The translations under genes were made by a program, and so were the position numbers. Shown piece after piece: positions 1 to 21,556 of a stretch of DNA of 38,326 nt. Every line of letters begins with the position of its first letter. The stretch's first letter is position 1. The DNA is taken from NCBI GenBank assembly GCA_018813065.1, contig JAHJCH010000114.1, forward strand, positions 1 through 38,326, written 5' to 3'. The notes under the pieces are model-generated. The model did not search any database and had not been told where the DNA came from. It saw nothing but the letters and a program-made list of their open reading frames with translations. This DNA is from Myxococcota bacterium (GTDB lineage: Bacteria > Myxococcota_A > Bradymonadia > UBA7976 > UBA1532).

Positions 1-174
1 CACACCTCCAGCCCCGATCTTCGCAAGGCTTGGCTCGTCGCCTACCGCCTCTTCTGTGAGATGTGGCGCGCCGCTCTTGAGAAGTTCACCCTTGGAGTCG
101 CGACGTCGTTGCCCGAGGAGGGGTGTAGGCCACCATGGTTGCCCTACACCAGGCCGGTGTCCACTCAAGCGTAG
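1..174 (+). CDS. 3' end of an upstream gene, partial. Frame 1 reads ...DLRKAWLVAYRLFCEMWRAALEKFTLGVATSLPEEGCRPPWLPYTRPVSTQA*. Function unknown.
   Basis: Open frame from the window edge to TAG at 172-174. GC3-rich codons consistent with the host. No domain recognised. Confidence 0.25.
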   Translation, partial: HTSSPDLRKAWLVAYRLFCEMWRAALEKFTLGVATSLPEEGCRPPWLPYTRPVSTQA

Positions 175-262
175 CAAGTCCAGGCACGCAAGAAGGGGCT
201 TGAAGCGCATCGGAGATAGAGCGACCTTAGCGTGACAGTCACGAGGGGCCTGAGGTGCGGGT

Positions 263-619
263 ATGCGACGCTGGATGATGTTTCTCGCTTTGAGCTTTGT
301 GGTGGTGGCGGCGTGCGAGCGCGATGAAGGGGAGGAGGCCGAGGGCGCGGACGCGACCTCTCCAGAGTCAGTGACCTTCCCCTGCGGTCCTCACGCGTGC
401 GCGGCGGATCAGATCTGCGAGCGCGAGTATGGGGAGGGTGCCCACTCCATCGACTCCTCCGAAGGCAGCCCGGAGGATCACTTCGCGTGCGTGGCCGCGC
501 CCGAGTCGTGCGATGGGGTTCCCATCTGTGAATGCCTCAGCTGTGAATGCTCCACCTCCCCCGAGGGCTTCGTGACCTGCGCCTATGCGCGCCCCTCGGC
601 GCCTCCTCAGGGGGGGTGA
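263..619 (+). CDS. Cys-rich secreted lipoprotein (118 aa)
   Basis: ATG preceded by GAGGTG about 6 nt upstream. Hydrophobic N-terminal h-region ending in a lipobox-like VAAC. 12 Cys in the mature part. High GC3. Confidence 0.5.
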   Translation: MRRWMMFLALSFVVVAACERDEGEEAEGADATSPESVTFPCGPHACAADQICEREYGEGAHSIDSSEGSPEDHFACVAAPESCDGVPICECLSCECSTSPEGFVTCAYARPSAPPQGG

Positions 620-681
620 CGCTCGATCCGAGGTCGCGCTCCCGCTGCTCACCCTGGAGGTGTCACCACCCCCGGAGGTGC

Positions 682-918
682 GTGCTCATCAGCTTCAACT
701 CCATTCACCGGACCGATCCGGGCTGGTTTGGCCGCTATCTGCTCTGGGAGGGGATGCGCCAGAGCATCACGCTGGAGGTGCTGCGGGAGATGTTCGGGGG
801 GCATATTGAGCGCTATCAGGAGATCTATCGCGCCCAGAGATCGTCGCACGCCTCCCAAGGCCACCGCCGCACCCATCTCGATGGGGGTTTGCTGAACTCA
901 GAGCACGAATCCACCTGA
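682..918 (+). CDS. Possible small ORF in an alternative frame (GTG start uncertain), hypothetical. Peptide ...GWFGRYLLWEGMRQSITLEVLREMFGGHIERYQEIYRAQ...
   Basis: Non-low-complexity peptide with high GC3. Overlaps the tail of the 263..619 ORF in another frame. No credible RBS, so coding status is unresolved. Confidence 0.2.
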   Translation: MLISFNSIHRTDPGWFGRYLLWEGMRQSITLEVLREMFGGHIERYQEIYRAQRSSHASQGHRRTHLDGGLLNSEHEST

Positions 919-977
919 AATTTTGCTTGAGGCGGGGGGAAGTCGATCTTCGAGGGGTCGAGATCTGGATCAGATAT

Positions 978-1032
978 CAAGAGTGTCGCGATTACGCTTA
1001 CTTAAGGTGGGGTGCTTAAATCACCTGTCCCC
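978..1032. repeat. Left copy of a perfect 55-bp direct repeat (caagagtgtcgcgattacgcttacttaaggtggggtgcttaaatcacctgtcccc) bounding the AT-rich cassette
   Basis: Exact identity with 2692..2746, read directly from the sequence. Confidence 0.9.
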
Positions 1033-1431
1033 TTTGCATTTGATATAGATAACTCCACAAGTATCCAGAATGAGCCATCGACAATTAATACAACCACAAA
1101 CTCTGTCACTATACCAGGTAATACAGTAAGAGAAAGCTCTTCTGTGTTTAATAGATTTCATCAACCGACTATATTAGATATAGATTCATTTATTAATGAT
1201 GGAATTGACCAGTATTTGAGAGAATGGGATTTTGAGGATCAGGATCATATAAATAATAATGGTAATGTTCCATATTGGTATTCCAGAATATACATAGACC
1301 CCTCAAGCAATCTTACATTCCAAGAAGAAATATGTGAAAAATTAGAATTTGATTTCTATCATACTCCAGGCTATATGAATGAAATAAGAAGACAAGATTG
1401 GGCAAAATTCGGAAAAAACTGGAATAAATAA
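1012..1431 (+). CDS. Hypothetical protein (139 aa) encoded in AT-rich DNA. N/T/I-rich with no signal peptide. The only available start is a GTG lying inside the left direct repeat.
   Basis: A 139-codon open frame in roughly 30% GC DNA, where stops are frequent, is unlikely by chance. Composition (N, K, I, Y, T rich) is foreign to the host. No recognisable domain. Confidence 0.45.
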   Translation: MLKSPVPFAFDIDNSTSIQNEPSTINTTTNSVTIPGNTVRESSSVFNRFHQPTILDIDSFINDGIDQYLREWDFEDQDHINNNGNVPYWYSRIYIDPSSNLTFQEEICEKLEFDFYHTPGYMNEIRRQDWAKFGKNWNK

Positions 1432-1451
1432 GGAAAAAAGGGACAAAAAGA

Positions 1452-2450
1452 ATGAAAGAAACACTCTTGATGCTATGTTTAATCATGCTATTTGTATATG
1501 TCGAATCAGCCTGCGCAAATATTATTTTTCTTGAAGATCAAAAGTTGATTGACTATGTAGAATCGGCTAATCTTGATCTATTAAATCAAAAAGATTTAGA
1601 ATATATATCCCAAAGTAAATATTCCTCATATATTTATTTAGAGGAGGCGCTTTACCGAGCATTCTATTGCTTAGACAAGGATACGTGTAAGTATCAACTC
1701 CTAAATAGGCTTCCTAATAAAAATCATGTTTATTTAAACTATGCAATGAATCGAATTCTTGAAAAAATAAATAAAAAAGGAAATATTGAGGAAGAGGACT
1801 ACCGATTTTGTTCAGAATGGTTACTCTATGCTTATATGATCGGCAAAAGAAATGGGGATATCGTTGGTAAAAACAGACCAAATTTTTTTGGTCTATTGAA
1901 AAAATACGACCAAATTAAATTAGAAAATACAGCAAAGCGCTCTAAACTTGCCCAATATTATCGATATTTCGATCAAATCAGTTCTGATTCACCTAAAATT
2001 ATCGATATTTTGATGAGTTTAAATATAGATATGGAAGTTAAGAGATTGCTCTTATCAGAAACGATTAATTTTAATTTTGATTTAAAATCAGAGCGAATTT
2101 ATAATCTTAAAAAGATTAGTATGCATACTATTTTTAATCCCGAAATAAATATAGATCGAAATATTTTAATTGAACATATTAAAATGATGATAAAAATTGC
2201 GGTATCAATCGATGATAACAACTTTCTTAAAGAGATAAAAGATCGTTTAGATGATCTTGAGCTATTTAATTCAAGTAAAGAAATCAGAATTTGCAAACAT
2301 GTCAATGCAGATATAAATGAATTTAACAAATGTATTTATACATATATCGGCCTCAATAGCGAAATAAATCTCCTTAAATACTATCTGAAAAGAGCATACC
2401 TAATGCAGTCATGGTCTAATACATTTGCAAATATGGAAAGGTATCATTGA
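1452..2450 (+). CDS. Hypothetical secreted protein (332 aa), AT-rich, composition-atypical. Predicted signal peptide MKETLLMLCLIMLFVYVESACA.
   Basis: Long ORF in AT-rich DNA starting 21 nt after the previous ORF. N-terminal signal-peptide-like segment. K/N/I/Y-rich, probably helical. No family recognised. Confidence 0.55.
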   Translation: MKETLLMLCLIMLFVYVESACANIIFLEDQKLIDYVESANLDLLNQKDLEYISQSKYSSYIYLEEALYRAFYCLDKDTCKYQLLNRLPNKNHVYLNYAMNRILEKINKKGNIEEEDYRFCSEWLLYAYMIGKRNGDIVGKNRPNFFGLLKKYDQIKLENTAKRSKLAQYYRYFDQISSDSPKIIDILMSLNIDMEVKRLLLSETINFNFDLKSERIYNLKKISMHTIFNPEINIDRNILIEHIKMMIKIAVSIDDNNFLKEIKDRLDDLELFNSSKEIRICKHVNADINEFNKCIYTYIGLNSEINLLKYYLKRAYLMQSWSNTFANMERYH

Positions 2451-2460
2451 TAGAAATACT

Positions 2461-2637
2461 CCCGGCGGAGTAGGTGGCCGGAGTAGGTGGCACCCAGCCG
2501 GAGTAGGTGGCCAGCTGGCGGAGTAGGTGGCCAGCTGGCGGAGTAGGTGGCGGAGTAGGTGGCGGCAGTAGGTGGCTGCACTGGCGGCAGTAGGTGGCGC
2601 GGCAGTAGGTGGCACCCGCGGCAGTAGGTGGCACCCA
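2461..2637. repeat. Array of about 10 short direct repeats: GGAGTAGGTGGC (x6) then GGCAGTAGGTGGC (x4), separated by 0-9 nt spacers
   Basis: Counted directly in the sequence. The array lies between the AT-rich ORFs and the right 55-bp repeat, about 170-350 nt upstream of the NRPS start. Confidence 0.85.
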
Positions 2638-2691
2638 TGTGCTCTTTTGAGTCTTGATACTTATGTTGGCTTTGCTCCAAGCTTGCACGGC

Positions 2692-2746
2692 CAAGAGTGT
2701 CGCGATTACGCTTACTTAAGGTGGGGTGCTTAAATCACCTGTCCCC
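2692..2746. repeat. Right copy of the perfect 55-bp direct repeat
   Basis: Exact identity with 978..1032. Confidence 0.9.
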
Positions 2747-2808
2747 CGCTTGGTCCGCCTCTGCGGAATCTTGTAGGGTGTCGCACTTCACAGGCAACGA
2801 GGCTCCTC

Positions 2809-5800
2809 TTGAGCGAGACGCGCACGGCGCCAGAGCATGACGATCCACCCCTCCCTCTGCCCGCGCTGCGCATCCTCCTCGCCCACCATCGGCGGGCCGA
2901 GCGCGGGGCAGAGACAGACTACAACCTGCCCCAGCTCATCCGGCTCGACGGCCCCCTCGACGTGGCGCGCTTATCCGCGACCCTTGAGCAGCTCATCGCG
3001 CGCCACGACGCCCTCCACAGCCAGATCGTGGCGAAGGGCGGCGCGTGGCGCCTCCAAACGATCACGCCTCCCCCGCTCTCGCTGCGCGCCGAGCCCATCG
3101 CGCGGGGTGAGGCGCGGGCGCGCTTCCAGGCGTTCATCCAGCCCTTCGACTTGGCGACGGCTCCCCTCTCGCGGATCGGGCTGCTGCGCGAGACCCCCAC
3201 CCGCCACTGGCTGATGTGGGATTTTCATCACGCGCTCGTCGATGGGGTCTCGTTGGGTCAAATCTTCGGGGAGATCGGGGCGGGCTACGCGGGGCAGAGC
3301 ATCCCCGCTCCGCGCCTCACCTACGCCGATTTCTGCCGCGACGCCACACGCGAGATCGCCCCACCCCTCAGCCCGCCGCCCTCCCCCATTCCGTGGCTGA
3401 TCGCCCCCTCGCCCCGCGCAGGGATCTTCGTCGAGGCGCTCGATCTCGACGCGGCGCGGCTCGCCCACCTCAAGGCCTCTTCGGCGCGGCTCGGGGTGCG
3501 CTTCACCGCCGTGCTCCTCGAGGGCCTCGGCCGCCTGCTGCGTCGGCTGACGGGCGTCGAGGCGCCGACGATCGGGGTGGTGACCGCAGGGCGCGCGCGG
3601 GCGCGCTTCGAGGGAGTCGTCGGGTGCTTCATCGAGGTCATCCCCGCGCGGATCCCCACGTCGGTGGGCCGCGTCGAGGCCACCTTGGCCGCCGACGCCG
3701 CGCTGACAGAGGGCCTCAACCGCCCCGTCGGCGCAGGCCTCTATGATGTCGTGCTCATCAACCAGGGCTTCCTTGGTCGCGCGGGGCTGCGCCTCGACGG
3801 GCGCGCTCGTCGCGAGGGGCTCGCCCTCACCCCAACGATCATCCGCACGGGCTTGATGGGGGCGACGCTGGCCGTCGAGCTGCTGCCGACCGCCACAGGG
3901 GCGCGCCTGCGCGCGGAGCTGAGCGGGCGCCTCCCCCCCAGCCTGCGCGCCCGCCTCCTGCCCCTCCTCGTGGCGCTCTTGGAGGCCGAGGAGGACACGG
4001 CGCGTTGGCCCACCACCCTCCCTCGCGCCCTCACGGCGGCGCCCGCCCTCGACGGCGGCGATCTGATCGAGGCGCTGCGCGGCTCGGCCCGCCGCCACCC
4101 CGCGCGCGTGGCGCTCGTCACGGCGGCGGGCCGCCTCACCTACGCGGCGCTCTTCGAAGCGGCGGAGGAGATCGCCGAGGCCCTACGCGCCTTCGATCCC
4201 CCGAGCGTGATCCTCGAGGTAGAGGCGCCCGTGGATCGGGTGGCGTTGGCGCTCGGCGCGGCGCTGGCGCGCATCCCCTTTATGTTCATCGAGGATCACC
4301 TCCCCGAGGGCCGCAAGGCCCACCTCCGCGCCCTCCACCCCGGCGGCCTGCGCTTGGAGACCCGCGCTTCATCAAGCTGGAGCCGCCTGCCCGGCGAGGG
4401 TGTACGCCATCCAGGGATCTTGGCCCTCCTGTTCACCTCCGGCAGCACCGGCGCGCCCAAGGCGGTGCGGCTGCGCGCCGAGGCGGCCCTGCGCTACGCC
4501 CGCGCCTTCACCCAGCGCGTCGGCGTCACGCCCGATGATGCGCTCGCCACGCCCGCCTCGTTCATGGTCGATATCGCCCTTGAGGCCCTCCTCGGCGCGC
4601 TCCTCAACGGCGCGGCGCTCTACCCCATCCCCCGCGCGTTGGCCCTCGACGGACAAGCCACCGCCGCCGCGCTGCGACGCGAGGAGATCACCCTCCTCAC
4701 CGCGACCCCCTCTTGGCTGGAGGCGTGCGTGGCGGCGGGCGGCACATTGACGGGGTTGACGATCATCTCGGGGGGGGCGCCGCTGCAGCGCCGCCTCGCC
4801 GTAGAGGGCCTCGCCGGTTGTCGCGTCTTCAACACCTACGGCCCCACCGAGGCCACCATCGCCTGCCTCGCGCATGAGGTCTCCGAGGCTGATCCTGAGC
4901 GCCTCCCGTTGGGGCGGCCCTTGCCGGGGTATCAGATCGTCATCGCCGCGGAGGGGGAGGCGCAGCCTGTGGGGGTCGGCGGGGAGCTGCACATCGGGGG
5001 GCCGCAGTTGAGCGCGGGCTACACCACCCCCGAGGGGCTCGCGCCGCTCAATCTCGTCACGATCCGTGGGGTGGAGGGCGCCCTCTACCCCACCGGGGAT
5101 CTCGCGTGGATGGATCTCGACGGCGTGATCCACTTCGCGGGGCGGCGAGATCGACAGGTCAAGCGGGCGGGGTGGCGCGTGGAGCTGGCCGAGGTGGAGC
5201 GCGTCTTGGCGGCGCGCCCCGACGTCTTGGCGGCGCGCGTCGAGGTCGTCGAGGGCGCGCTCCACGCGTGGATCACCCCCAAGGGCGCCTTCGACCTTGA
5301 GGCGACCCGAGCGGCTCTGCGTCATCACCTCCCCCCCCAGATGCGCCCCTCGGCCCTCTTCGTCAACGGCGCGCGCGCCGCGGAGGGTGGCGCGTCGGCG
5401 ATCCCCGAGGCGCTGCGCCCCCGCCTAGAGGCCCTCTTGCCGCGCTTCGCCGAGGCGCTCGGCGCCGAGATTGGCCCGCACACCGACCTCTTCGAGGCGG
5501 GCGGTGACTCCCTCTCGGCGATGCAGCTCTATGCGGCCCTGAGCGCCGAGTGGGATCTGGAGATCAACGATCTCTTTGAGCACCCCACCCCGCTGGGGAT
5601 CGCCGCGCGGCTGCGCCCCAAGGCCACCGGCGCCGAGCTGGAGGCGCGCCTGCGCGCGATGCTCGAGGTGCCCACCCCGTCCTCACCGTCACACGCGCCG
5701 GTGAACTTCACCCCCTCCACGCCGCTCCAGCGTCGCGCGATCTTGCTCACCGGGGCCACAGGGGACGTGGGCATCCACCTCCTCCGCGCGCTCATCGAGG

Positions 5801-6771
5801 AGACGACGACGCGCGTGTACGTCGGCGTGCGTGGGGGCGTCGAGGCGGGCGGCGCGCGGCTGGCGGCGATCTTCGAGGCCCGCTTCGACGCGCCGCTCGA
5901 TATGGAGCGCGTCACGCTGCTCGACTATGACCTGACGGCGCCCCTCTTGGGGTTGGGCGAGGCGGGCTTCACGGCGTTGGCGCGCGCCTGCGACGGGATC
6001 CTCCACGCCGCCGCCTCCATCAAGCTCGTGGGGCCGCTCGACGCGGCGTTGGCGATCAACCACGCGGGCACCGAGGCCATCCTCGGCCTCCTGGCGCGCA
6101 ACCCCAAGGCCGATCTCTGTTACATCTCGACGACGGCGCTGGATCACCTCGACGGCGCGCCCCACAACCCCTATCTGATCTCCAAGGCGCGGGCCGAGGC
6201 GGCGGTGATGGCGGCCCGTCAGCAAGGCGCGTGGGCCTCGATCTACCGCGTGGGTAACGTGGCCTTCGACGCGGCGACCGGGCGGACACGTCACGACATC
6301 GAGGCGAGCGCCTTCTACCGCTTCCTGCGCGCCGCCCTCGCCACGGGCGCCCTCTTCGATGGACACCGCCCTCTCTTCAACTTCACCTACGCCGATCAGC
6401 TCGCGCGCGGCCTGCTGCGCCTCTGGCATCAACCCACGCTGCTGGGGCGCGACTTCACGTTGAGCAACCCCCATGATCTGAGCCCCCGCCAGCTCCGCGA
6501 GGGGCTGACCCGCGCGGGCTACTCACTGGAGGGGCTGACGCCCGCTGCCTTCGTCGAGGTGTGGGCGCGTCAGCCCGCCACGCGGCGCGGTGATCTCGCC
6601 CTCGCCGCCCACGCGCTGGCGTTGATGGTCGCCGTCTCCCAGCCCGCCTTCCCCAACGCGCGCTCCTGGCTCAAGGCGCTCGACGCCCCCTTCTCCCCCC
6701 CCACCGCGGCGCACCTCCGACGCATGGTCGATCACTGCGTCGCGCGTGGCTTCTTCGAGGCCCCCGCATGA
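2809..6771 (+). CDS. Single-module nonribosomal peptide synthetase (C-A-PCP-R) with a terminal thioester reductase domain. 1320 aa, TTG start assumed.
   Basis: C-domain HHxxxDG (MWDFHHALVDG, nt ~3226-3246). A-domain cores A3 LFTSGSTGAPKAV (nt ~4426-4464), A5 NTYGPTE, A7 YPTGDLA and A8 GRRDRQVKRAGWRVEL. PCP motif GGDSLSAMQL (nt ~5497-5517). C-terminal NAD(P)-binding TGATGDVG (nt ~5751-5775) plus YLISK (YxxxK), typical of R domains. Confidence 0.9.
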   Translation: MSETRTAPEHDDPPLPLPALRILLAHHRRAERGAETDYNLPQLIRLDGPLDVARLSATLEQLIARHDALHSQIVAKGGAWRLQTITPPPLSLRAEPIARGEARARFQAFIQPFDLATAPLSRIGLLRETPTRHWLMWDFHHALVDGVSLGQIFGEIGAGYAGQSIPAPRLTYADFCRDATREIAPPLSPPPSPIPWLIAPSPRAGIFVEALDLDAARLAHLKASSARLGVRFTAVLLEGLGRLLRRLTGVEAPTIGVVTAGRARARFEGVVGCFIEVIPARIPTSVGRVEATLAADAALTEGLNRPVGAGLYDVVLINQGFLGRAGLRLDGRARREGLALTPTIIRTGLMGATLAVELLPTATGARLRAELSGRLPPSLRARLLPLLVALLEAEEDTARWPTTLPRALTAAPALDGGDLIEALRGSARRHPARVALVTAAGRLTYAALFEAAEEIAEALRAFDPPSVILEVEAPVDRVALALGAALARIPFMFIEDHLPEGRKAHLRALHPGGLRLETRASSSWSRLPGEGVRHPGILALLFTSGSTGAPKAVRLRAEAALRYARAFTQRVGVTPDDALATPASFMVDIALEALLGALLNGAALYPIPRALALDGQATAAALRREEITLLTATPSWLEACVAAGGTLTGLTIISGGAPLQRRLAVEGLAGCRVFNTYGPTEATIACLAHEVSEADPERLPLGRPLPGYQIVIAAEGEAQPVGVGGELHIGGPQLSAGYTTPEGLAPLNLVTIRGVEGALYPTGDLAWMDLDGVIHFAGRRDRQVKRAGWRVELAEVERVLAARPDVLAARVEVVEGALHAWITPKGAFDLEATRAALRHHLPPQMRPSALFVNGARAAEGGASAIPEALRPRLEALLPRFAEALGAEIGPHTDLFEAGGDSLSAMQLYAALSAEWDLEINDLFEHPTPLGIAARLRPKATGAELEARLRAMLEVPTPSSPSHAPVNFTPSTPLQRRAILLTGATGDVGIHLLRALIEETTTRVYVGVRGGVEAGGARLAAIFEARFDAPLDMERVTLLDYDLTAPLLGLGEAGFTALARACDGILHAAASIKLVGPLDAALAINHAGTEAILGLLARNPKADLCYISTTALDHLDGAPHNPYLISKARAEAAVMAARQQGAWASIYRVGNVAFDAATGRTRHDIEASAFYRFLRAALATGALFDGHRPLFNFTYADQLARGLLRLWHQPTLLGRDFTLSNPHDLSPRQLREGLTRAGYSLEGLTPAAFVEVWARQPATRRGDLALAAHALALMVAVSQPAFPNARSWLKALDAPFSPPTAAHLRRMVDHCVARGFFEAPA

Positions 6772-9122
6772 GCACGCGCTTCTTCGAGTGGACCCTTCAG
6801 CGCCGCGCGTGGCTGCTCCTCGGCGCGGCGCTCCTCCTCATCCCCCTCCTCCTCGGGGCGCTGCGCGCGCGCCTCGACTTCGACGTAGAGCGCTACTTCC
6901 CCGACGGCGACGTGGAGATCGAGCGTCTCCACGCGCTCCAAGATCGCTTCGGCGCCAGCGGCCCCGCGATCCTCACTTGGCGCCAAGCCGGGGGGTTCTC
7001 TGACGCGGACCTGCCCGCCCTCGCCTCGGCGGCGCGGATCTTCGAGGCGGAGGGGCTTGAGGGGATCTCGTGGATCGGCTCGGTGATGCGGCGCTACGCG
7101 CTGGACTCCCTTGAGGATCTCTTCGAGGACGAGGGGGACAACCCGCTCTACGAGGGGCTCTTGTGGAGCGCGGATCGCGAGACGGTGGTCTTCACCGGGC
7201 GGCTCCCCGCCGCGCGGGATCATGACGATGGGCGGCGCGCGCTGAACACAACGCTGACGGCGGCGCTGGCGTCGCTGGAGATGGAGGGGCGGACGCTGAC
7301 GCTCAACGGCGAGCCCATCCTCCGCGCGCGCTACCTTGAGATGATGGCGGTGGATCAGGTCAACCTCATCGGCGGCGGGGTCCTGCTCACCTTCCTCATC
7401 ATGCTGCTCGTGACGCGCAGTGTCGCCCACTCGCTCTTGACCCTCGCGGCCGTGATCCCCGCCTATCTGCTCGTGCTGACGGTCCTGGCGCTGACAGGGC
7501 GCCCCGTGACAGCGGTGATGTCGATGCTGCCCATCATCCTGCTCGTGGTGGGCCTCTCGGACACGATCCACATCCTCACCCCGCTGAGGGCGCCGCGCGG
7601 AGAGGTTGGCTGGCGCGCGCACATCGCGCGGACCTTCGCGGAGATCGCCCGCCCCTGCCTCTTCACCAGCTCCGTGACGGCGTTGAGCTTCGCGACGCTG
7701 GTGACGGCGGGGGTGGGCATCATCGTGGACTTCGCGCTGGCGACGGCGCTGGGGATCTGGGCGACCTTCGCCTTCTCCATGCTCCTCTTCCCCCCGCTCC
7801 TCAGCCTCCAGCGCGAGAAGGCCGTGGTGGCGCGGCCGACGCCGCGCGCGGTGACGTGGCTGTTGGGGCTCGGCGCGCGGCGGCCCAAACAGGTCCTGGC
7901 CCTCTTCACCCTCAGCGCGGCGGCGGCTGCGGCCTTCGCGCCGCAGACCCAGATCGAGGGCCACATCCTCAACGATCTCCACGATGGGGCCCCGCTCAAG
8001 GAGGATCTGCGCCGCATCGAAAAGCAGGGCTTCGGCGTCTTTCGCGTCAACATCGTCCTCGACGGCGCGCGCGCCCCGCTCTCCCCCGAGCTGCTCGACT
8101 TCAACGATGAGATCGCCCGCTTCGCCCGCGCCTTCGGCGCCTCAGCGAACTCTTCGAGTTCACTTCGTCTCGGGCGCGCAGCGCCCGGCGAGGAGAAATC
8201 CAAAGGATTTATCCGAGGGGGCGAAGCCCCACGTTCTTGGCCTGCTTCGCGGTCCAATTCATCGCGTACCACGCCGCAGGTCATCAAGGCGTTGACCCTC
8301 AATGACTTCATCGGCGAGGCGCTCAACCTGCGCGGGATCCCCTTCACGGCCCAGACGCGCGCCCGCCTCGACTTCTCCGAGGTCGAGGCGGCGCTGCGCG
8401 AGGCAGGCCGCGACGGGGATGGGCCACGGCTCCTCTACGATCCCGAGACCGGCTCAAGCCAGATCCTCCTCTTCGTCGAGGACGTCGGCTCCGAGGTGAT
8501 GCGACCTCTCCTCGCCGAGCTGGACGCCCTGGCGCGCCGCGCGGGTGGATCGATGGCGCCGCACGTGACGGGGACAGTGTGGCTGACAGAGCGCACCTAT
8601 GCGGCGCTCGTTGGTGACTTCACGCGCTCCCTCGGCGTGGCGGTGGTGATGATCTTCGCGATGCTCTGGCTCGTCGGCCGCTCATTGCCCCTCGCGCTCC
8701 TCGGCCTCATCCCCAACTTCTACCCGCTCCTCGCGCTCCTGGGGGTGATCGGGGCCACCGGCTACACCCTCAGCCCTGTCTCGCTGCTCATCTTCACCGT
8801 CGCCTTCGGGCTCGTCGTCAATGACACCGTGCATATCCTCAGTCGGGTCGCGCTGGCGCGGCGCGCTGGGCGTGAAGGGGCCGCCCTCATCCATGAGGTC
8901 ATGGCGATCTTGGGCAAGGCGATCATGACGACCACGCTCGTCCTCGCCGTGGGCTTCGTCGTGATGACGCGCTCTGCGTTTCAGACGATCTTCGATATGG
9001 GCTTTTTGATCCCCACCGCGCTTGTCTTCGCCCTCCTCGCCGACGTGATCTTGCTGCCCGCGCTCTACATCACCGCCGGGCGTTGGGTGGCGCCTCCGGC
9101 GCCTCGGGCTCATGTTGCGTGA
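6768..9122 (+). CDS. MMPL/RND-superfamily membrane exporter (784 aa)
   Basis: The start overlaps the NRPS stop (ATGA). Two blocks of about 5-6 hydrophobic helices (aa ~190-340 and ~610-770), each preceded by a soluble domain. GLSDTIHIL-type motif. Architecture matches MmpL/HpnN-like lipid transporters. Confidence 0.65.
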   Translation: MSTRFFEWTLQRRAWLLLGAALLLIPLLLGALRARLDFDVERYFPDGDVEIERLHALQDRFGASGPAILTWRQAGGFSDADLPALASAARIFEAEGLEGISWIGSVMRRYALDSLEDLFEDEGDNPLYEGLLWSADRETVVFTGRLPAARDHDDGRRALNTTLTAALASLEMEGRTLTLNGEPILRARYLEMMAVDQVNLIGGGVLLTFLIMLLVTRSVAHSLLTLAAVIPAYLLVLTVLALTGRPVTAVMSMLPIILLVVGLSDTIHILTPLRAPRGEVGWRAHIARTFAEIARPCLFTSSVTALSFATLVTAGVGIIVDFALATALGIWATFAFSMLLFPPLLSLQREKAVVARPTPRAVTWLLGLGARRPKQVLALFTLSAAAAAAFAPQTQIEGHILNDLHDGAPLKEDLRRIEKQGFGVFRVNIVLDGARAPLSPELLDFNDEIARFARAFGASANSSSSLRLGRAAPGEEKSKGFIRGGEAPRSWPASRSNSSRTTPQVIKALTLNDFIGEALNLRGIPFTAQTRARLDFSEVEAALREAGRDGDGPRLLYDPETGSSQILLFVEDVGSEVMRPLLAELDALARRAGGSMAPHVTGTVWLTERTYAALVGDFTRSLGVAVVMIFAMLWLVGRSLPLALLGLIPNFYPLLALLGVIGATGYTLSPVSLLIFTVAFGLVVNDTVHILSRVALARRAGREGAALIHEVMAILGKAIMTTTLVLAVGFVVMTRSAFQTIFDMGFLIPTALVFALLADVILLPALYITAGRWVAPPAPRAHVA

Positions 9123-9145
9123 CCTCTCGACGCCCGAGGCCCATC

Positions 9146-10090
9146 ATGATGCCCATCATGGACAGCCCATTCTCCGCCAAGCTTAAGCGGCTCCGCCGCA
9201 ACCTCAGCCTGCGGGGGGTCTTTCTCCTCCTCGCCTTGGGCGTCATCTTGCCCGCGCTCGCCTCCACCTCGGTGGGCATCGTCGCCCTCGTCATCGGCGA
9301 GGGCGACGACGATCTCGTCATCGGGGTGCTGGTCGTCTCCTTCACCGCCGTGGCGATCGGCGCGTCCGTCGCCGCCACGATCCTGCTCGGCGTGCGCGCC
9401 CGCACCGCCCGACTCCAAGCGGATCTGCTGGCCAACGTCAGCCACGAGCTGCGTACGCCCCTGGCGGTCATCCGGATGTACGCCCAGACGCTCCAGCACA
9501 AGCGCTTCGAGCGCCCCGAGCAGGAGGAGGCCTGCGTGGAGACCATCATCCGAGAGACGGAGCGGCTTGAGGCGATGATCCAGCGCGTGCTGACGTGGCG
9601 GGCCGCCGCCAAGGATCGAGACGTCGCGGCGATCGAGCGCGCGCCGCTGAGCCCGACGGTGGCGCAGGCCATCGCTCGCTTCCAGCGGATGCTGGCGCCC
9701 GGAGAGGTGGAGCTGGACGTCGAGCTCGACGCGGAGGTCCAAGCGCGGCACGATCCCCATCAAATCACAGAGTCGGTGCTCAACCTCTTGGTCAACGCGC
9801 ATAAATACACACGATCGCCGCGCCGCGTGCGCGTGCGCACCCTACTTCAAGGTGAGATGGCCGCCATCGTCGTCGAGGACAACGGCGTGGGGATCCCTCA
9901 CGCGGAGATCAAGCGGATCTTCGATCCCTTCTATCGCGTGCAGCGGACGAATCACAAAGCCGCGGGCGCGGGCCTGGGGCTGGCGATCGTCCGTCATATC
10001 GCCAAGGTGCATGGGGGGCAGATCCTCGTAGAGAGCGAGGTGGGGGTGGGCAGCGCCTTCACCCTCCAGATCCCGGGGGCGGCGCCATGA
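9146..10090 (+). CDS. Sensor histidine kinase (HisKA + HATPase_c) with two N-terminal TM helices and essentially no extracytoplasmic domain
   Basis: H-box ANVSHELRTPLAVI, N-box LNLLVNAHKYT, G1 DNGVGIP and G2 GAGLGLAIV. An alternative GTG start at 9083 would overlap the MMPL gene. Confidence 0.85.
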   Translation: MMPIMDSPFSAKLKRLRRNLSLRGVFLLLALGVILPALASTSVGIVALVIGEGDDDLVIGVLVVSFTAVAIGASVAATILLGVRARTARLQADLLANVSHELRTPLAVIRMYAQTLQHKRFERPEQEEACVETIIRETERLEAMIQRVLTWRAAAKDRDVAAIERAPLSPTVAQAIARFQRMLAPGEVELDVELDAEVQARHDPHQITESVLNLLVNAHKYTRSPRRVRVRTLLQGEMAAIVVEDNGVGIPHAEIKRIFDPFYRVQRTNHKAAGAGLGLAIVRHIAKVHGGQILVESEVGVGSAFTLQIPGAAP

Positions 10091-10764
10091 GCGAGACGAT
10101 CTTGGTGATCGAAGACGAAGACGCGCTCCGCGAGGGGTTGGGCTTGAACCTTCGCCTCGCGGGCTATGAGGTGCGCCTCGCCCCCGATGGGATGACGGGG
10201 CTAGGGCTGGTGGTGGAGCTGAGCCCCGCCTTGCTCGTGCTGGATATGATGCTGCCGGATCTGGATGGCCTGGAGATCATCGACACCCTGCGTGGGCAGG
10301 GGGATGATGTGCCGATCTTGGTGTTGTCGGCGCGGAGCACGACGGAGGATAAGATCGAGGGGCTGAAGCTGGGGGCGGATGATTATCTATCTAAACCTTT
10401 CGAGCTGTCCGAGCTGCTGGCGCGGGTGGAGGCGATGCTGCGCCGCCGTCGTGCGCGCGTGCGAGAGCGCTTGTGCTTCGGTGAGATCTGCATTGATATG
10501 GAGGCGCGGGAGGTGACACGGGCAGATGAGGTGGTGGCGCTGTCGGCCAAGGAGTTTAATCTATTGTATTTATTGGCGCGTTCGCCTGGTCGGACTTTTA
10601 GTCGGGAGCTGATCTTGGATCGCGTCTGGGGCTGGGGCTTTGAGGGGACCAGCCGGACGGTCAATAATTTTATATTGAGCTTGCGGCATAAGCTGGAGGA
10701 TAACCCCAAGCGGCCGCGACATATCAAGACGGTGCGGCAGGTGGGGTATAAGCTCGTTCGATAA
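10087..10764 (+). CDS. OmpR/PhoB-family response regulator (receiver + winged helix)
   Basis: Start overlaps the HK stop (ATGA). Receiver motifs (LVLDMMLPDLDG, SARSTTEDKIEGLKLGADDYLSKPF). C-terminal trans_reg_C signature (...RTVNNFILSLRHKLE...VRQVGYKL). Confidence 0.9.
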   Translation: MSETILVIEDEDALREGLGLNLRLAGYEVRLAPDGMTGLGLVVELSPALLVLDMMLPDLDGLEIIDTLRGQGDDVPILVLSARSTTEDKIEGLKLGADDYLSKPFELSELLARVEAMLRRRRARVRERLCFGEICIDMEAREVTRADEVVALSAKEFNLLYLLARSPGRTFSRELILDRVWGWGFEGTSRTVNNFILSLRHKLEDNPKRPRHIKTVRQVGYKLVR

Positions 10765-10882
10765 CGCTGCGCGTGAGTAGGCAGTGGACAATAGAGCGTT
10801 GGAACAGCTCTAAGATTTGGCGGAGTGAGGTAAATATCCACGTCTACTAAAGAATCGCCCCGTATTCGGGGGGAGGATACTT

Positions 10883-12460
10883 ATGTCGATGTTTTCGCTG
10901 ATCATCGCTCTCCTGATCACGCCCGCCCCCGCTGAGGAGCGGCTCACCTTAACGGTGACACCCTACGCCGAAGATCTACACAGTTGGTCACCGGCGCGCG
11001 TGGATGAGGCCATGAGCTTGGCGGCGTGGTATCTCAAGAAGTGCCGTATTGACCTTGACTGGGCGCCGATCAAGCCGCTGCGCCCAGGCGATGAGACCGA
11101 CTTAACGACGCTCCAGCGCACGAACCGTCACGATGAGCTGCTCTTGTTGTTGCGGGCGCCAGGGGACCGGCGCGCATACGCGCTGAGCGGCGTGGCCAAT
11201 CTGCGCCGCGTCCACGGTGGCTGGGTGGCGGAGACGGCTTGGACCAACACGATACTCGCCCTCGCGGAGGTGCTTGGCCGAGGTAAGCTCAAGCGCTGGC
11301 CGAGCCCTGAGGGGGCAGACGGCGAAGCCTCGCGGGCGTTGGCGCACCTCGCCATGCTCTACGCAACAGCGCAGGGCTGGATCACGATGGCCCCGGCGAT
11401 CACCGAAAAGCACTGCGCCTTCCTGCAACGGAGGCTGAGCCACCTCAGCAAGCAGCGGCCTCGACAAGCGGGCGGGCGGAGGCCTCTGAGCGAGAAGGGG
11501 CCTCAAGCGATCCATGGCTTGACGCTGCCACGCGCGCCCCAGGCGCTGCTTATGGCCGATGTGCCAGCCCGTGATGCCTATCAAGCGGCGGTGAAGGTGG
11601 CCGCAACCTCTTGGCGTCTGCTCACGTGGTATCCACACCAAGTGCAGCTCCATAAAGGCGTCATCGAGGTGCCGGGCGAGGGCCTCGCGCTGCTGCGCGT
11701 GGGCTGGATGCCGCTGTTTATCTCGAAGAACAACGACGCGGTGCATATCACCTGGGCGCATGTCTATGCCCGCGACCTGAAGCAGTACCGTCGAGGGCGT
11801 CGGCTCAAGGGCTGCGCGCGGCTGCTCGCCGCCGATGTCGTACAAGCGGGTCATGACCTGCCCGCCCAGCATCCAGGCGTGGCGATGGTCGTCTGTGACA
11901 ATCGCGTATATCAGATCACGCCGCTGCTCTCTCACGATGAGCGCGTTGACACGCTGCCGCCCATGCGTTGGGCCACGATCACGCGCTGGGGGCCTGGCCG
12001 CGCGCAGCTGATCGCCGCGCATCCGGACGGGGTGGGCGTCTATACCCTGTGGCCTGGTCATCCACCGCAGCGGGTCAAGACGCCTGAGGCGGTGGCCGCG
12101 CTGGCGGCGCTCGCCGACGCGCCGATTTGGCAGGGTTTGGGCGTCGAGCCCGTGCAGTTAACCCCGAATGTTCTGCGCACACCCACGACATCGCGGCCTC
12201 TGGGTGATGGCGCTCGGGCGTGGTTCAGCGGGCATCAGCAGCGGGCCTTGCGGCTCAAGGCCACGGCGAGCGGCTTGAGCTTTCGCAGCGACAGCCTGAT
12301 TGGGGGCGCGTCGCGCCAGGTGACTTTGCCCGTAGGCGCGATCTGGGCCATTCAACCCGGTGACGTCGGGCCGCTCTTATGGGCGCTGACCCTCATCAAC
12401 GGGCGTTGGCATCTGTATCCCGCTTTCGAGCCCGGGTGGAGTATGAGCGTTGAGCCATAG
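10883..12460 (+). CDS. Hypothetical secreted protein (525 aa)
   Basis: Strong RBS (GGAGGA, 6 nt spacer). N-terminal signal peptide MSMFSLIIALLITPAPA. High GC3. No family recognised. Confidence 0.6.
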   Translation: MSMFSLIIALLITPAPAEERLTLTVTPYAEDLHSWSPARVDEAMSLAAWYLKKCRIDLDWAPIKPLRPGDETDLTTLQRTNRHDELLLLLRAPGDRRAYALSGVANLRRVHGGWVAETAWTNTILALAEVLGRGKLKRWPSPEGADGEASRALAHLAMLYATAQGWITMAPAITEKHCAFLQRRLSHLSKQRPRQAGGRRPLSEKGPQAIHGLTLPRAPQALLMADVPARDAYQAAVKVAATSWRLLTWYPHQVQLHKGVIEVPGEGLALLRVGWMPLFISKNNDAVHITWAHVYARDLKQYRRGRRLKGCARLLAADVVQAGHDLPAQHPGVAMVVCDNRVYQITPLLSHDERVDTLPPMRWATITRWGPGRAQLIAAHPDGVGVYTLWPGHPPQRVKTPEAVAALAALADAPIWQGLGVEPVQLTPNVLRTPTTSRPLGDGARAWFSGHQQRALRLKATASGLSFRSDSLIGGASRQVTLPVGAIWAIQPGDVGPLLWALTLINGRWHLYPAFEPGWSMSVEP

Positions 12461-14991: not shown

Positions 14992-15009
14992 TTTCTAAAT
15001 TTTCTAAAC
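14992..15009. promoter_or_regulatory. Tandem TTTCTAAA(T/C) direct repeat in the AT-rich divergent intergenic region between the HDOD gene and the XRE regulator. Candidate operator.
   Basis: Two adjacent 9-nt repeats, 58 nt upstream of the XRE start, in a local GC trough. Confidence 0.3.
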
Positions 15010-15066
15010 TGACGTCTGGACGCAGCCGTTAGGGCGTAAATATCTCCAAGGGATAATGGGGGAGCT

Positions 15067-15501
15067 ATGCAACAGCAGACGAGCTTTGGGCAGATTCTAT
15101 ATCGACGACGCAAGGAGCTTGGGCTCACGCAGAGCCAGCTGGCCAGGATGATTGGCGTGCAGCCTAACTACATAGTTTATCTAGAGAAAGGTGAGCGCCA
15201 CCCCTCGGATCGTACGGTCAAAAAGGTGGCCGTGGCGCTTGAGCTTGATAAGGGAGAGCTGTTCCTCGCGGCGAATCCACAGGTGCGCGACTTTCTAAAC
15301 GTAGATGAGGATAACGTGATCCACCACGAGTACTTGCCCATCGGGCTTAAAGCGCTCTTGGAGGATGATGATCTATGCAATTTATTTGATATTACTGGCG
15401 AAGAAATCGCACTTTTGGCGAAAATTCGCTTTGATGGGCGTGTGACAGAAGCTCAACAGTACTTATCTCTCCTATTAAATATAAGATATATCTTCTCTTA
15501 G
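15067..15501 (+). CDS. XRE (Cro/C1)-family helix-turn-helix transcriptional regulator (144 aa)
   Basis: N-terminal HTH_3 signature (LGLTQSQLARMIGVQPNYIVYLEKGERHPSDRTVKKVAVALEL). The C-terminal third has lower GC. Confidence 0.75.
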   Translation: MQQQTSFGQILYRRRKELGLTQSQLARMIGVQPNYIVYLEKGERHPSDRTVKKVAVALELDKGELFLAANPQVRDFLNVDEDNVIHHEYLPIGLKALLEDDDLCNLFDITGEEIALLAKIRFDGRVTEAQQYLSLLLNIRYIFS

Positions 15502-16475: not shown

Positions 16476-16529
16476 GGCGGTGAGGCTTGTCAGTCGCGGA
16501 GGCTTGCTCTCATCATCTGGTACGCAGCT

Positions 16530-16558
16530 CGCAAAATAAGTTTTGCGTGAGTTTTGCG
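16530..16558. promoter_or_regulatory. Perfect palindrome CGCAAAA-TAAG-TTTTGCG plus a third AGTTTTGCG half-site. Candidate operator about 45-75 nt upstream of the giant gene start.
   Basis: 7-bp inverted arms read directly, and a repeated half-site 4 nt downstream. Confidence 0.3.
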
Positions 16559-16602: not shown

Positions 16603-19600
16603 GTGATAGATCAGATCCCCCTTCTTGGGCTCACGCTCTTATTGGCCGCGCCCCCCCCCGCGCCCATCCCTCGCCCCGGCGCGGGTGAGTCGGAGGCGGT
16701 CATCGAGGTTCAAGGCTTTGGCCGCTACGCCATTCAAGCGCAGAGCCCACGCGGCGCCACTGTGCGGCTCCTTGATCGCATGACCGGCCTCAGCGCGCCC
16801 GCCGGTGAGGTGGGCCGCGTCGATGGTCGCCTCGATGTCTTCCTTGAGCGCGGCGAATATAAGATCGTCACCCAAGGGCCGGCGGATGAGCAGGGCCAGA
16901 CCCTCTTGCACGTCCGGCCCTTCTCCGAGCGCGGCGCCGATCAAGCCCTCGTGGAAGGCCAACCCCTCACCACCGCTTTGGATGATCTTGAGTCGCTGAG
17001 CTATTGGCTGGAGCTGCCCCTCCCCAAGCGCGTCACCCTGGAGGCCGCCGGGCGAAACCTGGAGACCCTGCGCTTGTGGCGCGATGGGGCTTGGCTCGAT
17101 CCCAACACCCCTCAGTGCGCGGTGATCTCCCCCACCCCCACACAGCCCCTCAAGCGCTGCCGCTTCTCCGCGCAGCTGCCCGCCGGGCTCTATCGCCTCA
17201 GCCTCTACGGCGGCCCCAGCCAGCCCTGGACCACCGCCAGCGACGCCCACCCGCTGCACCTGCGCTGGGGCATCCCGCGCCTGGGCGCAGAGGGCTACAG
17301 CGCCCAGGTCATCAGCGCCTTCGGCGAGGACCTCTTCATCGCCCCCTCCGGCGCTGATCGCTTTGAGCTGTGGCTGAGCCAACCCGCGCCCATCGCCTTT
17401 AAGGTTGAGCGCCTCTGGAATCAGCCCTTCGGCGATCCCGAGCGGGCGCTCAGCGCCCTGAGCCCCCAGGCGCGCGTGCCGACGTTGAGCCTCTATGAGG
17501 GCAGCGACGCCGAGCGCTTGGTCACGGTGCAAGGTCAGCCCGGTCAGGGCTATCGCCTCTGGCGTTATGAGGAGGCCTATACACAAGGCGCCCTCAGCCG
17601 CGACGGCGATTTCTTCTTCTCGTTGATCCCCGCCGCGCCCCTCGCCGACGTCATCGACGTCACCTTGCTCCTCTGGCAGCAGACCGAGGCGGGCGCCAAG
17701 GAGATCGCCGCGCAGCTCATCGAGATCGGGCCAGGTCGCGCTTATCAGGGCCGCTTTAACGTCGAGGGCGAGGTCAGCTTGCTCATCGATGTGTTGGCGC
17801 GTGGCAGCTACCCCTTCTATGCGGAGGGCGCGCGCTTTCAGCTCAAGCCGCTGGTGATGGATGAAGAGGCGCCGTTTGAGCTGGCGCCCTTCGCCGAGAA
17901 GCGCCTGGAGGAGCTGGAGGCGGGCCGCTACGTCTTGACCCTCAAGAGCGACGCGCCGCAGGCGGTGGCGCTGCGGATCGGCCTGGGCGCGCCGACCCCG
18001 ACCCGAGGCGTGGCCCAGATCCCCCAGCTCCACCTGGAGGGGGGCACGAGCCTCTACTTCCGCGCCGGCGAGACGGGCGCCCGCTTCGCCAAGCACCTGC
18101 GGCGGCTGCCCCTCGATCTGGAGTCGGCGCTGCCCTTGGTGCTCTTGCCCGGCGAGACGATCGAGCTGCCCATCGCCCCCAAGGTGGCGGGCGTCATCAA
18201 CGCCTTGGCCGTTGAGGGCGCGGCCCAGCTCTCCCTCGACGGCGGGCCTTGGCGCGCCGAGGTGACCGCCGCCCCCGGCGCGGCGCGGCTGCGCGTCCGC
18301 AGCGCTGCGCCCACCTCCGCCCTCTTCAGCCTCGCCCTTACCCCCGCGCTTCAAGCCCTCAAGGCCCCCACCACGCGCCCTGAGCCCCTGGTGGGGATCA
18401 AGCTGGGCGCGCCGCTGGCCTTCGCCGTGACGCCCAACACGCCCTACACCCGCAAGGTGGAGATCGACGCGCCGGGCTTCTACATCGTCGAGAGCGCGGG
18501 GCTGCTGAGCGTCCGTGGGCAGCTGCGCACCCGCACCCGCCCTGAGCTGGCCACCAACACCGGCGGCGGCCCGGGCGGCAACGCCTGGCTCTCCGCCTTC
18601 CTGCGCCCCGGCGACTACGCCGTGACCTACACCCCCCAAGGCCGCTCCGCCGGTGACATGAGCGCCCGCGTGCGCGCCGCCACGCTCATCGAGGCGGGCG
18701 CCTTGGTCGATGGTCGCCCCGCCCGCGTGGAGATCCCCGCCGACGCCGTGGCCCGCTTCACCTTTGAGATCCCGACGGCGGGGCGCTGGCGCGTGGAGGC
18801 CTTTGGCCTGGGGCAGACCCTCCTCTGCCGCGTCGAGGACGAGGCGGGCTGGCCCATCGGCGCCGTCGATGGCCCCTGTGATCGCGCCCTCGATCTCAAG
18901 GCGGGCCGCTACGCCCTGCTCTTGCCCGCCAAGCGCGTGGAGATCACCGCCCAAGCGCGCATCAGCCGCGTCCTCGACGCGCTGACCGTCAAGGGGCATG
19001 GGCCGCACGCCGTGGCCTTGGGCGCCTCCGTTGAGGCCCTCTGGCGTGAGTCGCCGCAGCGCGAGCCGGATGTGTGGACCTTTAGCCTCCCCGCGCCGGA
19101 TGAGATCACCCTCAGCCTCGGCGACGCCATGATGGGCCAGCTCCTCGACGCCCAAGGCGCCCTCATCGCGCCCATCCACCCCGGCCAAGCCCTCAAGCGC
19201 GCGCTGCCGATGGGGGATTACCGCCTTGAGATCCGCGCCCGTCGCCGCGATGACTTCCGCGCCTATACGCTCGATTTACGCAGCGAGGCGCTCTTAGCGG
19301 GGCAGACGCGCGAGGTGGAGGTGCTCAAGTCCAAAACGCTCAGCGTCTCCATCGGCGAGGCCGGGCGCTATGTCTTCTCCTCCTTCGGCCAAGCGGATCT
19401 GATGGCCCACCTCTACGACGCCCAGGGCGCGCTGATCGCGCATAACGATGATCGCCCGCTGGACTGGAACTTCCGCCTCTCCGCCCAGCTCAACCCTGGG
19501 CGTTATCGCTTGGAGATCGAGGACTTCGAGGAGCGCGAGCCCTGGGCGTGGCGCTGGGAGGCGCCCAAGGAGGCGCGCGTGGAGCTGCGCCGCGTCACCC

Positions 19601-21555: not shown

Positions 21556-21556
21556 G

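Follow-up and report, generated by a model that had tools for sequence, protein, structure and literature searches.

A compound, length-polymorphic repeat array in a putative foreign insertion upstream of an NRPS operon in a groundwater Myxococcota bacterium

Are ten short direct repeats in front of an NRPS gene a control element of the operon, or did they reach this position for another reason? The question is raised by a stretch of 38,326 nucleotides, hereafter the window, which is the complete contig of a Myxococcota MAG from Aspo deep groundwater (locus tags KKF91_12840 to 12855). An earlier note, made from the letters of this DNA, had described the repeats and considered two explanations: a multimerised binding array or upstream activating sequence (UAS) for an OmpR/PhoB-type regulator of the operon, or a slippage-prone tract. 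Here we examined the array, its surroundings and its occurrence in independent assemblies. With moderate confidence we consider the ten repeats to be a compound, G-rich, slippage-prone and non-coding minisatellite situated in a foreign insertion. Taken by itself, the array adds one more example to a familiar class of features. More unusual is the AT-rich block that carries two ORFan genes between 55-bp direct repeats.

The repeat array and the block around it

A motif search confirmed six 12-mers followed by four units that are one base longer, i.e. ten direct repeats, a copy number which derives from a short-read metagenome assembly and is lower in a second assembly of the locus. The whole 38,326-base window was searched for GSAGTAGGTGGC with up to one mismatch. 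This gave 10 matches, 10/10 perfect, all on the + strand and all within 2467-2632, against a chance expectation of 0.33 and a maximum of 2 across 100 shuffles. Sub-array 1 (2467-2563, + strand) consists of six GGAGTAGGTGGC units starting at 2467, 2480, 2500, 2520, 2540 and 2552. Sub-array 2 (2564-2632, + strand) consists of four GGCAGTAGGTGGC units starting at 2564, 2586, 2601 and 2620. Across the ten units the start-to-start distances are 13, 20, 20, 20, 12, 13, 22, 15 and 19 nt and the spacers measure 1, 8, 8, 8, 0, 0, 9, 2 and 6 nt, in agreement with the range of 0-9 nt given before. Three units of sub-array 1 are spaced exactly 20 nt, with CAGCTGGC-type spacers. Both sub-arrays share a AGTAGGTGGC core that is invariant in 10/10 units while the spacers vary, and a search for diverged array copies with 1-3 mismatches found none. 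Tandem Repeats Finder reported overlapping periods of 12, 13, 15, 19, 20, 34 and 40 on the array, among them period 20 with 3.8 copies and 90% matches, period 12 with 3.3 copies and 96% matches and period 19 with 4.0 copies and 80% matches. A single uniform period does not run through the array; we take it as compound or decayed, which leaves room for membership in the VNTR class.

The array has 70% GC and a G-over-C skew of +0.41. Of the 9 unit distances only 2 are divisible by 3, and none of the six frames passes through the array without a stop or a shift. Because the unit distances break all six frames, the array is non-coding; a coding repeat, Gly-rich on the + strand or Pro/Thr-rich on the - strand, was ruled out on the same ground. 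CRISPR arrays have repeats of 23-50 nt and unique spacers of similar length. The units of 12-13 nt and the spacers of 0-9 nt differ from this, and a CRISPR hit was not obtained, so the note had rightly set this class aside.

The array lies 177-342 nt before the TTG at 2809 (170-350 nt in the earlier estimate). At this TTG opens the frame of a single-module NRPS (C-A-T-reductase; 2809-6771, + strand), the first gene of the operon. Among the genes downstream are an MMPL-type transporter, a histidine kinase (9083-10090, + strand) and its partner, a response regulator of the OmpR/PhoB family (10087-10764, + strand; domain matches Response_reg and Trans_reg_C). The regulator that had been announced for the operon is thus indeed encoded there.

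On its left the array starts 16 nt past the stop codon of a 332-aa ORF, exactly at a switch in base composition. A short inverted repeat, TACTCC-cggc-GGAGTA, was noted in the sequence at this boundary (2457-2472, + strand): TACTCC (2457-2462), the final six bases of the AT-rich DNA, pairs with GGAGTA (2467-2472), the start of the first unit, across a loop of 4 nt. The chance of an inverted repeat at exactly that boundary is about 0.0015. It may be a seed of the array or a coincidence, either being possible. On its right the array is followed by a unique non-coding stretch of 59 nt with 47% GC (2633-2691, + strand). The 11-mer GATACTTATGT is found in this stretch at 2656-2666 and again at 10876-10886, where it covers the RBS and the start codon of a 525-aa unknown ORF at 10883. 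A mini-ORF of 18 codons from the ATG at 2662, within the first of these copies, would extend into the repeat that comes next.

This repeat is the right copy of a 55-bp direct repeat (DR2, 2692-2746, + strand). It begins 59 nt after the last array unit, just as the array had been placed inside it before, and lies 63 nt upstream of the NRPS start. The left copy (DR1, 978-1032, + strand) is 100% identical and forms the left boundary of the block. Identity stops sharply on both sides; past either edge of the repeat no homology was found. Between the repeats lie 1,659 bp; with one 55-bp copy the unit amounts to 1,714 bp. Most of it is an AT-rich block with two ORFan genes (1033-2455, + strand), which has 29% GC vs 68% in the rest of the contig, and GC falls from about 0.65 to 0.29 at the block. 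The array is the GC-rich, non-coding right end of the 1,659 bp.

That the block is a real insertion is well supported, though short of proof, and the unit from 978 to 2746 has the appearance of prokaryotic or viral DNA that entered recently from a foreign source. Because the array is located between the direct repeats, it arrived with the inserted DNA or arose at its edge. Judged by this arrangement, it is not a part of the ancestral NRPS control region, which would comprise 919-977, one repeat copy and 2747-2808. The heptamer GTGTCGC occurs inside both 55-bp repeats (983-989 and 2697-2703) and once more at 2778-2784, 81 nt further on, within the native DNA that precedes the NRPS gene. Its contexts GTGTCGCGATTAC and GTGTCGCACTTCAC are a candidate pair of native operator half-sites; the 7-mer is not over-represented window-wide.

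The two ORFan genes have the same orientation, are 20 nt apart and appear operon-like. ORF1 (1012-1431, + strand) encodes 139 aa in a frame that stays open as far as the left junction. The second ORF (1452-2450, + strand) encodes 332 aa with a hydrophobic N-terminus resembling a signal peptide. The longest open frame runs to 340 codons, whereas none in 500 shuffles was longer than 136; this exceeds by far what chance would give in DNA so rich in AT. A search for homologues of both proteins among 5.8e9 clusters returned self-hits only, and so did an exhaustive scan of 1.84e9 representatives with the 332-aa protein. Overall, the search for both ORFans covered about 15 billion proteins and yielded no relatives. 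Matches in Pfam, PHROG, NCBIfam and PADLOC were absent for both. Single-sequence AF2 models had a pLDDT of 41 and 39, too poor for a fold search.

The remainder of the block gave few leads. Viral and JGI metagenome contigs contained 0 exact matches to the 55-bp repeat. An attC or dif-like structure of the repeat was dismissed by eye, without a formal model (GTT/AAC core triplets and an 11-6-11 arrangement are lacking). A tRNA or tmRNA as a target was not found, and Rfam at E<=1 over positions 1-4000 reported nothing beyond two chance snoRNA hits. No recombinase, transposase, Rep or partition gene was recognisable in the block or anywhere in the 38-kb contig. Compared with phage and plasmid collections, the block DNA had no similarity except one chance hit of 55 nt. 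The DnaA box TTWTNCACA matched once, at 1333-1341 inside ORF1, which is not significant; the AT-rich DNA there is coding.

Length of the array in independent assemblies

The locus was recovered from other read sets. The Logan contig SRR2544012_54898 (L001) matched the window from 1003 to 2652 with 0 substitutions and was fully identical over 1003-2531. Its array is two units shorter; one 20-nt unit and one 19-nt unit are absent. Collapse of a perfect repeat at k=31 can account for the absent 20-nt unit (three 31-mers are repeated in the window). The absence of the 19-nt unit, which belongs to sub-array 2, is backed by ten 31-mers that are not present in the window. Because these novel 31-mers must come from reads, this loss is not a k=31 collapse. 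Host contigs of the same samples diverged from the window by 0.05-0.26%. Near-identical strains therefore differ in array length, and this is VNTR behaviour. The array is length-polymorphic, the polymorphism being one observation at the level of a k-mer assembly for which slippage in the library PCR is a possible source. The comparison of copy number between strains, which the note had proposed, thus came out at one 19-nt unit fewer in the SRR2544012 assembly with 0 SNPs in the adjacent 1.5 kb, and it lends weight to the slippage-prone tract that had been offered there as the second choice.

The insertion at this place was examined in the same way. Two Logan k=31 contigs from two samples, L001 and L126, have their first base inside the left repeat, exactly 30 nt (k-1) short of its end, and enter the AT-rich DNA. 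Because both cross the left junction, it is present in separate read sets. L001 ends at 2652, 40 nt short of the right 55-bp repeat; low coverage or a branch, i.e. a different right junction in SRR2544012, are possible causes. For the upstream lipoprotein-like gene, the 139-aa ORF, the 332-aa ORF and the response regulator NCBI lists two protein accessions each, numbered consecutively in the same way. Therefore, the upstream gene, the AT-rich ORFs and the NRPS follow one another in this order in two deposited MAGs. The block was found with its host in two water types.

We also asked where else such units occur. Viral, GTDB genome and metagenome collections were searched for two or three units in succession; the hits were in-frame coding Gly/Ala repeats, regular non-coding VNTRs of a single period and a few GC-rich minisatellites. 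The minisatellites were in unrelated bacteria beside housekeeping genes (TctC, transhydrogenase, amylase, amidase). Among the arrays in these collections, whose species representatives excluded this genome, none shared the flanks of the window or was irregular in the same manner. Seven loci (L128, L149, L151, L142, L141, L131 and L153) are non-coding minisatellites on the AGTAGGTGGC 10-mer in unrelated bacteria (Burkholderiales, Actinomycetes, Streptomyces, Caulobacteraceae and others); L149 has a regular higher-order period of 46 nt. In these loci a G-rich repeat motif has probably recurred by chance. A literature search for the 10-mer turned up primer coincidences only.

Slippage, protein binding and other origins of the array

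How did the array come about? In the reading that we prefer, two adjoining sub-arrays would have been built on the shared invariant AGTAGGTGGC core, and the array would lengthen and shorten as units slip against each other during replication. Its length would also change through short deletions at GGC microhomologies. The short junctions are in fact derivable from the longer ones by deletion at GGC/GCG microhomologies: GGC-CAGCTGGC-GGAG gives GGC-GGAG, and GGC-TGCACTG-GCG gives GGCGCG. Slippage and deletions together may then produce arrays of different length in very closely related strains. The array would have come in with the insertion or arisen at its edge, and the chief effect of the insertion on the NRPS operon would be that the old upstream DNA was displaced by 1.7 kb. 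The homogeneous blocks of units, the identical cores, the lack of diverged copies and the length difference between strains are better accounted for by recent local duplication than by long-maintained binding sites. The layout of 6 + 4 units in two blocks also fits local duplication, so the stepwise expansion suggested before is retained. The insertion of the block, slippage as the mechanism and the absence of a dedicated function are what we infer from these data.

Bacterial VNTRs or minisatellites, e.g. the MIRU-VNTR loci of Mycobacterium and the 9-20-nt VNTRs of Burkholderia, are the closest known counterpart. Like the array they are non-coding head-to-tail direct repeats of about 12-22 nt with block-wise unit variants, their copy number varies between near-identical strains and they need no associated protein. 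Of the features of this class the array displays detection as a tandem repeat, non-coding sequence and copy-number variation, the last as a single assembly-level observation. Unlike typical VNTRs it is irregularly spaced and mixes units with and without spacers, and it resides on a tiny foreign insertion beside a 55-bp direct repeat. The irregular overall spacing, the main difference from look-alike arrays in databases, counts against a minisatellite: the other public arrays found with at least three core copies keep a single regular period or a regular higher-order period. An invariant core amid varying spacers could reflect the constraint of a binding site instead of recent duplication. The position, 59 nt from an att-like repeat and 16 nt past a stop codon, also speaks against it; functional sites are common beside att-like repeats and just past stop codons.

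Phase-variable contingency repeats, as in Neisseria and Haemophilus, have units of 1-7 nt between -35 and -10 or inside an ORF. The array has in common with them a slippage-prone tract upstream of a gene and a length polymorphism. It differs by its long mixed units and its distance of at least 177 nt. As a minisatellite the array alone would matter little: it would be one more hypervariable non-coding repeat, at most a strain marker for a groundwater Myxococcota population.

The main rival is a protein-binding function. What keeps it alive is that the units are irregularly spaced around an invariant core and that an att-like repeat lies 59 nt away, and we regard it as unlikely, if still worth serious consideration. 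The array might be the multi-site arm of a small integrative or circular element. As candidate roles, its units might be arm-type sites bound by a recombinase or an excisionase that works on the 55-bp core, or else iteron- or centromere-like sites. In a circular form, the array, the 59 nt and the 55-bp core would constitute a control region of about 300 nt upstream of ORF1. The perfect, sharp-edged direct repeat resembles attL/attR of a site-specifically integrated element, and the element recurs with its host in two water types. Arm-type recombinase sites are known from phage lambda (P1/P2/P'1-3) and mycobacteriophage L5 (P1-P7). They are short, irregularly spaced direct repeats near a core that is duplicated at the ends of the element, and in both respects the array is similar; irregular spacing is usual for such sites, as in attP of lambda and L5. 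Unlike these systems, the element is merely 1.7 kb and made of ORFan genes, and it carries ten identical copies in one arm only: direct or inverted copies of the motif were not detected in the other arm. Inverted copies at the other end were absent between 562 and 2467 with up to 3 mismatches, which led us to reject transposon-end binding sites.

More generally, identical end cores, as expected for att sites of tyrosine recombinases, are present. Yet a recombinase gene is missing and an overlap with a tRNA/tmRNA or a conserved target was not seen. Neither an integrase or excisionase nor a Rep, a Par or any recognisable DNA-binding domain is encoded in the element, and no integrase, Rep or Par was recognised across the 38-kb contig. 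Related elements, repeats or proteins were not found in viral, plasmid, phage, genome or metagenome collections. Further, ten perfect sites and a polymorphic copy number fit recent slippage better than sites under maintenance.

The comparison with replication and partition sites is similarly divided. Iterons of theta-replicating plasmids are 17-22-bp units with a regular spacing of about 22 bp, and parC of R1 has 10 x 11-bp repeats. As in these, about ten direct repeats are placed beside an AT-rich region and an ORF of about 330 aa. In contrast to them, the units are 12-13 nt at irregular distances of 12-22 nt, helical phasing is lacking, the locus is chromosomal, Rep or ParR/ParM homology is absent and the 332-aa ORF has a signal-peptide-like N-terminus. 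We therefore agree with the note that this is not a classical iteron origin, given unit size, irregular spacing and the lack of an adjacent recognisable Rep gene.

An extended version of the protein-binding reading would make the whole 1,714-bp unit an undescribed miniature integrative, possibly circularising, element, composed of the 55-bp core, the two ORFans and the array. It would shuttle AT-rich ORFans into a GC-rich Myxococcota chromosome, and the ten 12-mers would be a putative cis-acting arm, with a recombinase or excisionase acting in trans, or one of the unit's own ORFan proteins, as the binding partner. On the present sequence evidence this is speculative and rather improbable. In a related variant the array may be a templated end-joining scar that records the capture of foreign DNA. 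Irrespective of the array, the context of the block is of more interest: 29% GC in a genome of 68% GC, two ORFans, perfect 55-bp repeats, an NRPS operon immediately downstream and no relative in public collections. If the block proves to be mobile, the array is the obvious candidate for a cis-acting site.

Could the array be filler DNA at a junction? Capture of an AT-rich fragment by error-prone, re-primed templated synthesis of the end-joining type might have concatenated a short template. The array begins right where the composition changes. Its opening GGAGTA is the reverse complement of TACTCC, with which the AT-rich block closes; its identical cores are joined by heterogeneous short junctions, and its 70% GC is unlike the 29% GC of the donor DNA. 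Nevertheless, we consider this origin very unlikely. The 59-nt unique stretch and the 55-bp duplication are left unexplained, and an inverted repeat of 6 bp carries little weight. The difference in length from sample to sample points to ongoing slippage and not to one event. Furthermore, we know of no precedent for bacterial junction filler of about 170 nt.

The regulatory explanation, i.e. a UAS that is bound by the OmpR/PhoB-family regulator of the operon or by a σ54 enhancer-binding protein and drives the NRPS operon, was the first choice in the earlier note. Its attraction is evident. The units are direct repeats on one strand within 177-342 nt upstream of the NRPS start, the operon encodes a Trans_reg_C response regulator with a kinase, and an FHA-σ54 activator is encoded at 35142-36599 (- strand). 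OmpR/PhoB boxes (Pho box, OmpR F/C boxes) are direct-repeat half-sites 10-11 bp centre to centre; like them, the array consists of one-strand direct repeats upstream of an operon that encodes the regulator. However, a centre-to-centre phasing of 10-11 nt is absent: the nearest spacings are 12 and 13 nt and the rest 15-22 nt. The array lies on acquired foreign DNA and cannot be an ancestral operator. Recurrence upstream of other operons, which the note had suggested to look for, was not observed within the 38-kb contig at up to one mismatch. The motif is missing from all other intergenic regions of the contig, and all matches with 2 mismatches are inside ORFs. A σ54 promoter of the GG-N10-GC type scoring >=9/12 was not detected between 850 and 3000, nor was a σ70-like promoter in 2451-2808. 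Thus, a binding array for the OmpR/PhoB regulator is unsupported although not refuted, and we judge a UAS of either kind to be highly improbable. The array is a warning against reading regulation into repeats upstream of biosynthetic operons.

Least credible of all is an artefact of metagenome assembly in the arrangement or the copy number, with a block from another organism or a free circle threaded in via the shared 55-mer. In its favour, the MAG was built from short reads, the anomalous block is found in the outermost 2.7 kb of the contig and L001 stops before DR2. Against it, the same gene order across the block is found in two deposited MAGs, the junction from the direct repeat to the AT-rich DNA occurs in two independent k=31 assemblies of different samples, and L001 reproduces the sequence of the array. 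The Fennoscandian Shield set, to which the MAG probably belongs, was assembled with MEGAHIT at k up to 141, longer than the 55-bp repeat. A free circle would still need to share the 55-mer with this host.

Other features of the contig

Several observations were made elsewhere in the window. A second, milder dip in GC (49%) at 15001-15500 covers a gene for a 144-aa protein of the HTH_3/XRE family (15067-15501). A σ54-type promoter-like sequence, TGGTACGCAGCTCGCA, is located at 16518-16533, 70 nt upstream of a 1,650-aa ORF without a Pfam hit (16603-21555). At 21548-29583 a bacterial alpha-2-macroglobulin gene is followed by that of a PBP1C-type penicillin-binding protein, as is usual for this pair. 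An 851-aa protein (29725-32280) combines a major-vault-protein shoulder with Vault_3 repeat domains and has a weak SPFH/Band-7 hit; the architecture of vault shoulder and Vault_3 is uncommon in bacteria. Finally, an ORF from about 36760 to 38326 (+ strand) runs off the right contig end and contains the Ser/Thr-kinase motifs HRDISPQNILL and VVDFGIAK. A long ORF on the - strand (36799-38172) is its antisense shadow. Toward its C-terminus the kinase-like ORF carries an in-frame 36-nt repeat (37868-38127) which encodes units of the QPSYEQPQPGYA type.
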